Positions 6,001 to 12,000 of a stretch of 64,000 nucleotides of DNA are shown here, piece after piece; position 1 is the stretch's first letter, and every line of letters begins with the position of its first letter. Source of the DNA: a plasmid; sequence record NZ_CP145916.1. One strand, written 5' to 3'. The position numbers were made by a program.

Positions 6001-9000
6001 ACTACGTGAAAGGCGAGATCACCAAGGTAGTCGGCAAATAATGTCTAACAATTCGTTCAAGCCGACGCCGCTTCGCGGCGCGGCTTAACTCAAGCGTTAG
6101 ATGCACTAAGCACATAATTGCTCACAGCCAAACTATCAGGTCAAGTCTGCTTTTATTATTTTTAAGCGTGCATAATAAGCCCTACACAAATTGGGAGATA
6201 TATCATGAAAGGCTGGCTTTTTCTTGTTATCGCAATAGTTGGCGAAGTAATCGCAACATCCGCATTAAAATCTAGCGAGGGCTTTACTAAGCTTGCCCCT
6301 TCCGCCGTTGTCATAATCGGTTATGGCATCGCATTTTATTTTCTTTCTCTGGTTCTGAAATCCATCCCTGTCGGTGTTGCTTATGCAGTCTGGTCGGGAC
6401 TCGGCGTCGTCATAATTACAGCCATTGCCTGGTTGCTTCATGGGCAAAAGCTTGATGCGTGGGGCTTTGTAGGTATGGGGCTCATAATTGCTGCCTTTTT
6501 GCTCGCCCGATCCCCATCGTGGAAGTCGCTGCGGAGGCCGACGCCATGGTGACGGTGTTCGGCATTCTGAATCTCACCGAGGACTCCTTCTTCGATGAGA
6601 GCCGGCGGCTAGACCCCGCCGGCGCTGTCACCGCGGCGATCGAAATGCTGCGAGTCGGATCAGACGTCGTGGATGTCGGACCGGCCGCCAGCCATCCGGA
6701 CGCGAGGCCTGTATCGCCGGCCGATGAGATCAGACGTATTGCGCCGCTCTTAGACGCCCTGTCCGATCAGATGCACCGTGTTTCAATCGACAGCTTCCAA
6801 CCGGAAACCCAGCGCTATGCGCTCAAGCGCGGCGTGGGCTACCTGAACGATATCCAAGGATTTCCTGACCCTGCGCTCTATCCCGATATTGCTGAGGCGG
6901 ACTGCAGGCTGGTGGTTATGCACTCAGCGCAGCGGGATGGCATCGCCACCCGCACCGGTCACCTTCGACCCGAAGACGCGCTCGACGAGATTGTGCGGTT
7001 CTTCGAGGCGCGGGTTTCCGCCTTGCGACGGAGCGGGGTCGCTGCCGACCGGCTCATCCTCGATCCGGGGATGGGATTTTTCTTGAGCCCCGCACCGGAA
7101 ACATCGCTGCACGTGCTGTCGAACCTTCAAAAGCTGAAGTCGGCGTTGGGGCTTCCGCTATTGGTCTCGGTGTCGCGGAAATCCTTCTTGGGCGCCACCG
7201 TTGGCCTTCCTGTAAAGGATCTGGGTCCAGCGAGCCTTGCGGCGGAACTTCACGCGATCGGCAATGGCGCTGACTACGTCCGCACCCACGCGCCTGGAGA
7301 TCTGCGAAGCGCAATCACCTTCTCGGAAACCCTCGCGAAATTTCGCAGTCGCGACGCCAGAGACCGAGGGTTAGATCATGCCTAGCATTCACCTTCCGGC
7401 CGCCCGCTAAATATCTCCTTTTGGGTTGTTAATAAAACATCCAATAAGTTGACTGTGCGTGAAAAAGAAAGTTTTGTGTGATGGCGTTGAAGATCGCACC
7501 GTTAAGCTCTTATGTGGGATGGTGCAGAGCTCGACGACTACCGATAAAACGCAACCGCCGCAAACAGACAAGAAAAAGCCCCAACTGATAACAGTTGGGG
7601 CTTCAGTATTGTGATTGGTGGAGCAATAGCACCCTGAACCCAAAACCTTCTCGCTCAACCGGTAGTGGCTGATAACAACTCGTGAGGGCTATTGCGGGTT
7701 AAGCATTTAGCGATGTCTAGGGCCAGACTGGACGTCTGAACGCAAGCCGCTGATACTGTACATAACCACAGTATCAGCGGAGGATACCCATGTCGCTGGC
7801 AAGGAACGCCACGGCGAGTCAATCGCCCACTCAAACAAACGGTTACGAACGCCACCAACCCGACCAGACGCTGCTCTACCAGCTGGTTGAGCAGCACTAC
7901 CCAGCCTTCAAAGCCTCACTCGAAGCCCAAGGTCAACACCTGCCTCGCTACATCCAACAAGAATTCAACGACCTCCTCCAATGTGGCCGTCTGGAGTATG
8001 GTTTCATGCGGGTTCGCTGCGAGGATTGTCATCACGAGCGTCTGGTCGCCTTCAGCTGTAAACGACGCGGCTTTTGCCCTAGCTGCGGTGCCCGCCGGAT
8101 GGCCGAGAGTGCGGCGCTGCTGATAGACGAAGTCTTCCCCAAGGAGCCCATTCGCCAGTGGGTGCTCAGCTTTCCTTTCCAGCTACGCTTTTTGCTGGCT
8201 CGCCATCCCCAGCTGATGGGCCAGGTCTTGAGTATCGTCTATCGTACACTCTCAACTCATCTGATCAAAAAAGCCGGTTACACCAAAGCCTCTGCACAAA
8301 CTGGCTCAGTGACTCTTATCCAACGCTTTGGCTCCGCGCTAAATCTCAATGTCCACTACCACATGCTGTTTCTCGATGGTGTCTATGCCGAAGATGACTA
8401 TGGCAAGCAACGCTTCCATCGTGTCAAGGCACCCACTTACGATGAGCTGAATACGCTCGCTCACACCCTCAGCCATCGCATCGCTCGCTGCATGGAAAAG
8501 CGTGGGATTTTGGAGCGTGATGCCGAGAATACGTGGTTGACACTGGAAGAGGGCGAAGACGATACGCTGACTCAATTACATGGTGCTTCGGTTACGTATC
8601 GCATTGCCGTCGGCCCCCAGCAAGGGCGCAAAGTCTTCACCCTGCAAACCTTGCCAGGGCGTGAGGATAAAGCCGACTCAAGCAGTCGAGTAGCCAACCA
8701 TGCTGGTTTCTCGCTACACGCCGGTGTGATGGCCGAAGCGCATCAGCGGGATAAGCTTGAGCGCTTGTGTCGCTACATTAGTCGGCCAGCGGTTTCAGAA
8801 AAACGTCTGGCATTAACCGCCAATGGGCAGGTGCGTTACGAGCTCAAAACTCCGTACCGCAATGGCACCACCCATGTGATCTTCGAGCCGCTGGACTTCA
8901 TCGCCAAACTCGCTGCGTTGGTACCTAAGCCGCGAGTCAACCTCACACGCTTCCACGGCGTCTTTGCACCGAACAGCAAACACCGAGTTCAAGTAACACC

Positions 9001-12000
9001 CGCCAAGCGGGGCAAGAAGCCCGACAAATCGGAAGGTCTCGATACTAACTGGCGTGACAAGAGTCCTGCAGAGCGCCACCGCGCCATGACCTGGATGCAA
9101 CGCCTCAAGCGGGTCTTCAATATTGATATTGAAGTCTGCGAACACTGCGGCGGTCACGTCAAAGTGATTGCCAGCATCGAAGATCCGAAGGTCATTGAGC
9201 AGATTCTCAAGCATCTGAAACAGAAAACAGCCAAGGCGAATGCCGCCAAGCAGCGTGAGCTGCCACCAGAACGAGCGCCGCCACTGACTCCCAGCCTGTT
9301 CGATCCATCACAGAGTCGTCTCTTTGACTGACGACCCCAAATCCAACACTGCTCAACACTGCCAACTTTTAAACGGGGCGGTGGGGCAGTTTGTATCTCT
9401 CGAGCTATCAGGCTAGAGATTTTACCGCCAAATCGAACCTTATTAGAGCGGTTTAGGCTGGACCGGCAGTTAAAATTGGGGCTTGAGCGGTAAACGAGTG
9501 AGGGAATTTCAGGTAAGATACTTCGGATGAGGAGCAAAAAGGTGGTTTATACTTCCTATACCCCATCGTGTCAAGGCACCCACTTACGATGAGCTGAATA
9601 CGCTCGCTCACACCCTCAGCCATCGCATCGCTCGCTGCATGGAAAAGCGTGGGATTTTGGAGCGTGATGCCGAGAATACGTGGTTGACACTGGAAGAGGG
9701 CGAAGACGATACGCTGACTCAATTACATGGTGCTTCGGTTACGTATCGCATTGCCGTCGGCCCCCAGCAAGGGCGCAAAGTCTTCACCCTGCAAACCTTG
9801 CCAGGGCGTGAGGATAAAGCCGACTCAAGCAGTCGAGTAGCCAACCATGCTGGTTTCTCGCTACACGCCGGTGTGATGGCCGAAGCGCATCAGCGGGATA
9901 AGCTTGAGCGCTTGTGTCGCTACATTAGTCGGCCAGCGGTTTCAGAAAAACGTCTGGCATTAACCGCCAATGGGCAGGTGCGTTACGAGCTCAAAACTCC
10001 GTACCGCAATGGCACCACCCATGTGATCTTCGAGCCGCTGGACTTCATCGCCAAACTCGCTGCGTTGGTACCTAAGCCGCGAGTCAACCTCACACGCTTC
10101 CACGGCGTCTTTGCACCGAACAGCAAACACCGAGTTCAAGTAACACCCGCCAAGCGGGGCAAGAAGCCCGACAAATCGGAAGGTCTCGATACTAACTGGC
10201 GTGACAAGAGTCCTGCAGAGCGCCACCGCGCCATGACCTGGATGCAACGCCTCAAGCGGGTCTTCAATATTGATATTGAAGTCTGCGAACACTGCGGCGG
10301 TCACGTCAAAGTGATTGCCAGCATCGAAGATCCGAAGGTCATTGAGCAGATTCTCAAGCATCTGAAACAGAAAACAGCCAAGGCGAATGCCGCCAAGCAG
10401 CGTGAGCTGCCACCAGAACGAGCGCCGCCACTGACTCCCAGCCTGTTCGATCCATCACAGAGTCGTCTCTTTGACTGACGACCCCAAATCCAACACTGCT
10501 CAACACTGCCAACTTTTAAACGGGGCGGTGGGGCAGTTTGTATCTCTCGAGCTATCAGGCTAGAGATTTTACCGCCAAATCGAACCTTATTAGAGCGGTT
10601 TAGGCTGGACCGGCAGTTAAAATTGGGGCTTGAGCGGTAAACGAGTGAGGGAATTTCAGGTAAGATACTTCGGATGAGGAGCAAAAAGGTGGTTTATACT
10701 TCCTATACCCCTGGATGGACGAACAAGCCATTAAGCAGTGGCATTGCCTGGTCCACCATGGCCGCCGAGGGAGAGGTTTCCACTACAGTGACACCGCCAT
10801 TGAGACGGCCCTGATGCTAAAAGGCTTGTTCAAGTTGCCGCTGCGGGCGCTAGAAGGCTTCATTAACTCGTTGTTCCAACTGATGGCGGTGCCTTTGCAG
10901 TCGCCGGACTATAGCTGTATCAGCAAGCGCGCCAAGACCGTCGACATCAAGTACCGCCTCCCCAGCCAAGGCCCGGTGGCTCACTTGGTCATTGATGCCA
11001 CCGGCCTCAAGGTCTATGGCGAAGGCGAATGGAAAATTCGCAAACACGGCAAGGAGAAGCGACGAGTGTGGCGCAAGCTCCACTTGGCGGTGGATGCCAC
11101 AACCCATGCGGTCATCGCTGCCGAAGTCAGCCTGGAGACGGTGGCGGATAACGAGGTGTTACCGACGTTGCTCAACCCCTTACGACGCAAGATAAAACAG
11201 GTCAGCGCCGATGGTGCGTATGACACCAAGGCCTGTCATGCGCTACTGAAGAAAAAGGGGGCGAAAGCCACCATACCGCCGAGAAAAAATGCGGCACCGT
11301 GGGAGGAAGGCCATCCCCGCAACGAGGCGGTGACGGCGCTCAAGGCCGGTGAACTGAAGCAATGGAAGAAAGACTCCGGCTATCACCAGCGCTCGATAGC
11401 CGAGACCGCCATGTACCGGTTCAAGCAACTCATCGGGCCAACGCTGAGCCTGCGGAACTACAACGCCCAGGTGGGCGAAATCCTGGCTGGCGTGAAGGTG
11501 ATGAACAAGCTGATAGGGCTTGGTATGCCTGTTCGCCAGCCAGTGAATTGAGTGGTATCAACGGGTTGGGGAACGGCCATCCAGCGACGGATTTGGTCAA
11601 CAACGCCGATAACACCTCGAAATCGGAGTTTATATGGCTTCGTGGGGGAGTTATGTGTTTGAGCTTTGTCGCATTAACGCGAATCAGGGGTTGACGGCAG
11701 AAATGGACTGGAATTACACTTCTTAGAGTCGGCGTTGCCGGAAAATTCTGATTGGATTAGTTGTTCGGGGTGCGAAAACAGTCGTAGTTCGGGGGAAAAA
11801 CCGAATTTTGACCCGAAACCGCAAAAAACCCGAAATGACAGTTCCTATCAAATACTTAACTTGTAGGTTCTTTCAAATGGATAAGAATGATGTTGTTAAG
11901 AAGATACTTGAATCAAAAAAGTACGAAAACCTTGATTCAGATATTGTTGAAAAGGTTGTTTCCATTTCTGAGAAGAAATATAAATTAAAGGAAGTTGAGA

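Follow-up and report, generated by a model that had tools for sequence, protein, structure and literature searches.

A private tandem duplication ending at the oriIS terminus of ISCR1 in an armA plasmid, probably a rare footprint of rolling-circle activity

No element is blamed more often than ISCR1 for the presence of armA, qnr, blaCTX-M-9, blaDHA and blaNDM beside class 1 integrons. The stretch considered here (the window) comprises 64,000 nucleotides of the plasmid sequence record NZ_CP145916.1 and carries a complete ISCR1, immediately followed by a second copy of its own 3' part and then by armA. The features of this locus are as follows.

7410..9563, + strand: complete ISCR1 (2154 bp), separated by 24 bp from sul1 of the 3'-conserved segment (3'-CS) of a class 1 integron; along its full length it shares 99.95% identity with the ISCR1 of six unrelated loci in the databases
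7790..9331, + strand: intact transposase gene orf513 (rcr1), 513 amino acids (aa), with Zn_Tnp_IS91 at aa 33-127 and Y2_Tnp at aa 172-396
8417..9563, + strand: repeat unit copy 1 (ISCR1 positions 1008-2154), identical to 9564-10710
9557..9570, + strand: novel junction TATACCC/CATCGTG, in which the oriIS terminus is joined to ISCR1 position 1008; CC ambiguity at 9563-9564
9564..10710, + strand: repeat unit copy 2, a 5'-truncated ISCR1 (1008-2154), whose oriIS terminus, the second one, abuts the usual armA-context flank CTGGATGG
10715..11551, + strand: IS5-family DDE transposase gene
11877..12650, + strand: armA

The annotation of NZ_PP238397.1 supplied the gene coordinates in the region, which were checked against open reading frames (ORFs). 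The assignment to ISCR1 and to the IS91 family is based on the N-terminal Zn domain and the Y2/HUH domains of the transposase (PF14319, E = 1.6e-21, and PF04986, E = 3.2e-45, both in 7790-9331; HUH motif, in the form HYH, at aa 189-191), on the identity over 2154 bp, on the oriIS terminus and both PCR1 promoters, and on the spacing from sul1, which ends at 7385 and is followed by the start of ISCR1 at 7410, a layout as in PMC6218425. The orf513 protein is identical to that of the WP_000050481 type, and the sole difference at the DNA level is synonymous. The promoter Prcr1 is under LexA control (PMC13393415). Beyond the repeat the transposase gene mentioned in the preliminary description of this DNA was indeed found, and armA follows it; we take this IS5-family gene to be ISEc28/tnpU of the Tn1548 maps.

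An exact tandem duplication of the 3' 1147 bp of ISCR1 had been claimed in that description, and the base-by-base comparison bears it out: 8417-9563 and 9564-10710, each of 1147 nt, show 0 mismatches. A separate repeat search recovered the same pair with a start-to-start spacing of 1147. A chance origin of such a repeat is impossible. The identity runs 1 nt past either end of the pair, giving a periodic tract from 8416 to 10711, and the ambiguity of the repeat junction is the 2-nt CC at 9563-9564. In ISCR1 coordinates the unit is 1008-2154. It opens in phase at codon 210 of orf513 (CAT, His210) and contains codons 210-513 (304 codons and the stop), together with the 232-bp oriIS region bearing both POUT promoters. 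The last 279 codons, given previously as its coding content, are thus a wrong figure; the longest ORF of copy 2 with an ATG start, from Met235 to the stop, has 279 aa.

The right end of the unit is ...GGTTTATACTTCCTATACCC, and this end is the oriIS terminus, because ISCR1 copies of unrelated contexts diverge right there: 30 distinct non-self flanks follow the terminal nucleotide of GGTTTATACTTCCTATACCC in the collected loci, a few of them probably being sequence variants of one context. The window therefore holds two oriIS ends in direct orientation, 1147 bp apart. That such an arrangement is unusual, as had been remarked, is a fair statement, since about 4 of ~2070 ISCR1-bearing plasmids in PLSDB carry a comparable direct junction, with an acceptor between positions 1 and ~1330.

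The best comparator is the Providencia huaxiensis plasmid NZ_PP238397.1, which is collinear with the window over 1-34303 and carries the same 33-kb resistance transposon in another backbone. Only the transposon is shared, and a search of PLSDB for an isogenic plasmid, with the IncT backbone and the insertion site in common, gave none. Over 1-34303 the two sequences differ in two respects only, namely in the 1147-bp duplication and in one substitution, A>G at ISCR1 position 1703, which is synonymous (Arg441, CGA>CGG). This single-nucleotide polymorphism (SNP) is present in both copies.

9112..9112, + strand: SNP 1703 A>G in copy 1
10259..10259, + strand: SNP 1703 A>G in copy 2

The G allele was found in 0 of 2058 PLSDB records containing that stretch of ISCR1. 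Since both copies of the window share this private allele, they derive from one another in this lineage. The sole SNP of 33 kb lies within the duplicated unit, which makes up 3.5% of the region, and the chance of that is 3.5%. It may be older than the duplication, which would be a 3.5% coincidence, it may have been spread by homogenisation of the two copies, or it may reflect consensus polishing that treated the copies alike. An origin by error-prone synthesis was rejected, as no simple model gives both copies a new error.

A 6001-bp query over the region aligns across 4854 bp with hundreds of armA plasmids, which thus have the structure without the extra unit. Judging by the sequences compared, the duplication looks like a late, secondary and lineage-specific event, because both the canonical armA contexts and NZ_PP238397.1 lack the extra copy. 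For the same reason one of the origins proposed at the outset, in which ISCR1 copies recombined while the armA region was being assembled, finds no support. The comparison of armA contexts with and without the duplication, also recommended then, yielded these hundreds of plasmids without it and none with the exact junction.

The junction itself was searched for more widely. A 300-bp query matched it in one piece in 0 of 72,556 PLSDB plasmids and in 0 of 5,426 complete E. coli genomes, and neither the GTDB representative genomes nor the JGI metagenomes contain the junction 40-mer. As the exact junction is matched nowhere, the event is private to this lineage. Its type recurs elsewhere: in five further junctions from four other independent loci, the exact oriIS terminus is joined directly to ISCR1 position 32, 950, 1053, 1957 or 2127. 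With the window, this makes six oriIS-anchored junctions in five independent loci of different resistance contexts. These and related structures are listed below in ISCR1 coordinates.

CP096286 and CP096283 (Providencia, NDM context): 1-2154 followed by 950-2154
LC521854 (K. pneumoniae, qnrB6 context): 1-2154 followed by 1053-2154 and then by 1957-2154
CP039949 (K. pneumoniae, DHA-1/sap context): 1-2154 followed by 32-2154
Contig of P. huashanensis (Providencia), flank TAAAAAGGCAGC: terminus followed by 2127-2154, a 28-bp repeat
Contig of Acinetobacter lwoffii, identical flank TAAAAAGGCAGC: small oriIS repeat, more complex
p17-16-vir (NZ_MK191024.1, an armA plasmid): full ISCR1, 33-bp spacer GAGATTGGCGACGGGAAGCAGTACGCCAGCAGC (3651-3683), ISCR1 104-2154, armA
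E. coli JCH8249: ISCR1, 475-bp spacer, positions 908-2154
CP137481 (NZ_CP137481.1, Citrobacter): tandem units ending at 2126, not 2154; 2126 joined to 842 twice (4122/4123 and 5407/5408)

The survey took the oriIS end as its anchor; left breakpoints were detectable at ~2033-2154, and acceptors at ~1330-2100 lay outside its reach. Synthetic junction queries with segment 1205-1354 returned mostly normal copies, joined at the distance limit of the search, and cases already known, and the query with segment 400-549 returned the position-32 case and the cases with the 33-bp spacer. Looking up the 279-aa truncated ORF gave 124 collection blocks; all 10 of the 10 places inspected proved to be frameshifts or truncations by other insertion sequences (IS), and there was no oriIS self-junction among them. 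As a rule, the ISCR1 truncations inspected are interruptions by IS1, IS26 or IS3-type elements, or frameshifts.

Several other observations concern the ends of ISCR1. At 3650/3651 of NZ_CP039949.1 two near-full copies of the element stand in tandem (1-2154 followed by 32-2154) with zero microhomology at the junction, and position 32 might be the true cleavage point on the terIS side. To our knowledge, that point has never been defined for ISCR1. The site 2126/2127 (GGAGC/AAAAAGG, 28 nt from the end) is a recurrent breakpoint, being the donor end in the Citrobacter repeat and the acceptor in the 28-bp oriIS duplications of Providencia huashanensis (77/78) and Acinetobacter lwoffii (1809-1844); it may delimit a minimal oriIS. 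In LR130532.1 the oriIS terminus is followed by TTTATACTTCCT..., which resembles an 18-bp oriIS repeat, and this may be a sequencing error, several indels being present within the ISCR1 of that assembly.

What these junctions have in common bears on their mechanism. Homologous recombination between ISCR1 copies is unable to join position 2154 to position 1008: at TATACCC/CATCGTG two non-homologous points meet with an overlap of only 2 nt, which is not the product of amplification by homologous recombination. A constant end at oriIS together with a variable other end was found in all six junctions (acceptors 32, 950, 1008, 1053, 1957 and 2127). Six of the seven junctions detected lie exactly at 2154, and for five further matches to fall on this one specified nucleotide among ~122 detectable positions P is ~4e-11. 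The zero microhomology in CP039949 argues against a purely microhomology-driven process. The cause that most simply unites these junctions, with the same terminal nucleotide in different contexts, is site-specific strand breakage at the oriIS terminus, and such a cut is expected of an HUH transposase of the IS91 family. For IS91 a bottom-strand circle of single-stranded DNA carrying the oriIS junction is a functional intermediate, and mis-termination is frequent (PMC13181058); in the accepted capture model of ISCR1 the DNA beside oriIS marks an upstream termination point, homologous recombination then rescuing the circle (PMC3940617).

In our opinion, it is fairly probable, as far as sequences can tell, that the ISCR1 transposase acted at oriIS and that termination or rejoining took place illegitimately inside orf513. 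The product of the intact orf513, an IS91-family HUH transposase, would cut after ...TATACCC, and the strand would be displaced leftwards through ISCR1, with closure occurring prematurely at position 1008 within orf513 and not upstream of the element. The oriIS terminus would thereby be joined to CATCGTG. The resulting 1147-nt circle, predicted by analogy with IS91 to be of the bottom strand and with homology to ISCR1 only, would recombine homologously with the resident copy and so be rescued, giving 1-2154 followed by 1008-2154; re-insertion of the circle at the resident junction between oriIS and its flank would lead to the same product. So would a variant with a nick only, in which replication runs off at the transposase nick and switches template 1147 bp upstream. 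An intramolecular transfer of the oriIS end in a two-copy ancestor would be a further variant. From the sequence these variants are indistinguishable, and all of them need an origin-specific cut. The pathway is supported by the intact orf513 of copy 1 with its Zn, HUH and Y2 domains, and the existence of the same 33-kb transposon without the duplication means that one simple local event suffices. An aberrant rolling-circle initiation or termination, suggested in the preliminary description, is thus favoured by the boundary lying exactly at the oriIS terminus and by the five further junctions. Such an event would be the 'zero-cargo' limit of the ISCR1 capture model.

The bases next to the acceptor points may carry a related signal. 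Five of the six acceptor segments start with C, the base frequency of which is 28% (P = 0.008); the acceptor tetranucleotide is CATC in the window and CCAA, CCAC, CACA, CTTT and AAAA in the related cases. As a C/G-initial tetranucleotide is required beside oriIS in the IS91 family (PMC13181058), this bias may echo that requirement.

A number of points weigh against the involvement of the transposase. After two decades, transposition of ISCR1 still 'has not been experimentally proven' (PMC13393415, 2026), and neither this nor nicking by ISCR1 is known from any experiment (PMC13393415, PMC6218425). The C bias could equally well be read as microhomology of 1-2 nt, the parental flank being also C-initial in four of the five C-starting acceptor sites (among the six oriIS-anchored sites counted), and in genuine ISCR1 flanks C comes first in 12 of the 30 distinct ones, a mild excess that includes two probable sequence variants of other listed contexts. 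The acceptor rule of the IS91 type (CTTG/GTTC) had to be rejected, the acceptor in the window being CATC. When 36-nt bottom-strand windows were folded, no consistent signal of a ter-like hairpin was obtained at the breakpoints: the seven folded (six oriIS-anchored or spacer-linked ones up to 1957, and 842 of CP137481) range from the 23rd to the 94th percentile of ISCR1 positions, and position 1008, in spite of its CATCGT/ACGATG stem, reaches only the 62nd. The repeat end at 2126 in CP137481 indicates that ordinary internal ISCR1 duplications occur too, and a survey anchored on oriIS gives no measure of the frequency of non-anchored duplications.

One alternative is illegitimate recombination without any transposase. 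Replication slippage at the CC microhomology, or an unequal exchange of sister strands there, would have duplicated a random 1147-bp segment with its right end at the ISCR1 terminus by coincidence. The 2-nt overlap at the window junction, the overlaps of 1-2 nt at most related junctions and the internal repeat of CP137481 ending at 2126 instead of the terminus are all in its favour, but the terminal nucleotide is matched exactly in six junctions from five independent loci in varied contexts, and the CP039949 junction has no microhomology at all. A hairpin-stall hotspot at oriIS finds no support, since the folding of the terminal 44 nt (-0.8 to -1.0 kcal/mol) does not surpass that of shuffled sequences (z = +1.3). 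We consider slippage unlikely. An ancestor of the form ISCR1-X-ISCR1-armA, from which a deletion removed everything between the first oriIS terminus and position 1008 of the second copy, would also depend on the transposase through strand transfer of the oriIS end. Short-spacer structures of this kind do exist (33 bp in p17-16-vir and 475 bp in E. coli JCH8249); yet at least two events would be needed where a single duplication explains the sole structural difference from NZ_PP238397.1, and the otherwise unique SNP in both copies speaks for mutual derivation and not for a second, imported ISCR1. This route appears decidedly unlikely.

It may also be asked whether the isolate has a plasmid with one ISCR1, the repeat being an artefact of assembly or consensus or belonging to a minority subpopulation. 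Such a view would fit the perfect identity of the copies, the private SNP included, and the uniqueness of the junction among all collections searched. However, there is no reason why an assembler should break at the oriIS terminus, a point defined by biology, the repeat is located in mid-sequence and is not a circularisation overlap, and equivalent structures are present in assemblies of unrelated laboratories, so that we regard an artefact as the least probable of these three alternatives. Action of the transposase at oriIS remains, in our judgement, the preferred explanation. The wider proposition, that oriIS-anchored self-duplications are natural in vivo products of the ISCR1 HUH transposase, cutting at oriIS and terminating without terIS, with this window as a clean and recent example, is one to which we give about as much credence as doubt.

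Previous descriptions exist of ISCR1 itself, the armA regions of the Tn1548 type, tandem amplification of ISCR1 with resistance genes, free circular units and truncated ISCR1 units. Rolling-circle plasmids with two direct origins (pC194/pT181-type) initiate at one origin and terminate at the other, the interval being released as a circle. This behaviour was demonstrated for plasmid Rep proteins, and for ISCR1 it is a prediction only. In the ISCR1 capture model (Toleman/Partridge-Hall), as here, the oriIS end is constant, the new join follows directly after ...TATACCC, and circle closure combined with homologous rescue would explain the product. Unlike that model, termination in the window would lie inside the element (1008), without cargo and without 3'-CS, and rescue via ISCR1 homology only would give a partial self-duplication and no new variable region. 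The one-ended transposition of IS91/IS1294 (PMC13181058) is similar in having an HUH transposase of the same family, a fixed oriIS end with a variable other end and a circular oriIS junction; it differs in that the ends and targets of IS91 are of the CTTG/GTTC type, whereas CATC is found here, and in that the enzymatic activity of ISCR1 is unproven.

Arrays of ISCR1 with resistance genes, e.g., ISCR1-blaNDM-1, and the free circles that accompany them (PMC3940617, PMC8386438, PMC12542671) are likewise head-to-tail, linked to class 1 integrons and unstable. Each of their units, however, extends from one full ISCR1 (or 3'-CS) as far as the following one, a structure for which homologous recombination alone suffices, whereas the unit in the window consists of 1147 bp of ISCR1 only, has no resistance gene and is bounded by a non-homologous junction. 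The 'truncated ISCR1' units of Providencia, Proteus and Klebsiella (PMC9058013) are also 5'-truncated copies keeping oriIS beside resistance genes, but they were mostly made by other IS or by deletions, and here the truncation point is fused to another oriIS terminus. In the searchable literature, outside which most subscription journals lie, no description of oriIS-anchored partial self-duplication was found, either as a class or as evidence of ISCR1 activity, and for truncated ISCR1 there were annotations only and no mechanistic description.

The second copy is, judging from what it retains, most likely inert. Lacking ISCR1 1-1007, copy 2 (9564-10710) has lost the promoter, the Zn domain and HUH, and it keeps oriIS and the C-terminal 304 codons, so that it does not constitute a functional element; it is catalytically dead because HUH is missing. 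The Pfam match of its ORF is limited to Y2_Tnp profile positions 76-182, the C-terminal half, and there is no obvious Shine-Dalgarno sequence upstream of this ORF. The POUT promoters were located by the motifs TAAACG-N17-TAAGAT and TTCGGA-N18-TTTATA (from PMC6218425) in both copies.

9639..10478, + strand: truncated transposase ORF of 279 aa (aa 235-513), without the Zn-binding domain and HUH
9491..9551, + strand: POUT promoters of copy 1 (PCR1-1 at 9491-9519, PCR1-2 at 9522-9551), now directed into the truncated copy
10638..10698, + strand: POUT promoters of copy 2 (PCR1-1 at 10638-10666, PCR1-2 at 10669-10698), in the usual position relative to the IS5-family transposase gene and armA

Thus, armA and the IS5-family gene have their normal promoter set at the normal distance, supplied by copy 2. 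No + strand terminator is predicted in the repeat unit, and the promoters of copy 1 could therefore at most add read-through. The supposition that the duplication may affect POUT is a weak one: the promoters are duplicated, but the context next to armA is unchanged. The phenotypic effect on resistance is probably negligible or neutral. The repeat is predicted to be unstable, either by RecA-mediated collapse or by initiation at one oriIS and termination at the other.

The duplication is part of a large multiresistance region. It starts with Tn3-family tnpA/tnpR, intI1, aadB, catB8, blaOXA-10, aadA1, qacEdelta1 and sul1, continues with ISCR1, the extra 1147 bp, the IS5-family transposase gene, armA, ISEc29, msr(E) and mph(E), and then with an IS26-like element, ISAba125, blaNDM-1, ble, trpF, groES/EL and an ISCR27-type IS91-family transposase gene, and ends with IS26 and the mer operon, up to 34303. 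Two IS26-type copies in the same direction (19086-19915 and 28926-29756; 831 bp, mutual identity 99.6%) enclose the segment from ISAba125 to the ISCR27-type gene, and the bracketed ~9.8 kb may be a pseudo-compound transposon of IS26 or a translocatable unit. The IS91-family transposase gene in it (ISCR27/ISCR21 type, 26962-28491, downstream of groEL) is the second one of the window and is distant from ISCR1, with ~77-80% DNA identity in short stretches. The mer-bearing Tn3-family resistance transposon ends and the IncT (Rts1-like) backbone starts at 34303/34304, and this insertion junction was found in no PLSDB plasmid. From 34304 on, the backbone shows 99.9% identity to NC_003905 and Providencia rettgeri plasmids, and it differs from that in which the resistance transposon resides in pZ13CR2106-NDM.

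Summarizing these data, it may be concluded that the duplication is probably a rare footprint of ISCR1 rolling-circle activity. Junctions that are easily explained only by an origin-specific cut provide indirect and cheap evidence that the ISCR1 enzyme works in nature. If this is true, they would be the first sequence-level evidence of its enzymatic activity in clinical isolates, and they would map the cleavage nucleotide and a preference for C at +1. Moreover, the two origins in direct orientation, at a distance of 1147 bp, make this plasmid a natural substrate on which ISCR1 activity could be tested for the first time. For annotation, it follows that a 'truncated ISCR1' beside a full copy need not mean an assembly error. 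The window is unremarkable alone, but seen alongside the related structures it gives a way of testing whether ISCR1 is an active rolling-circle element.

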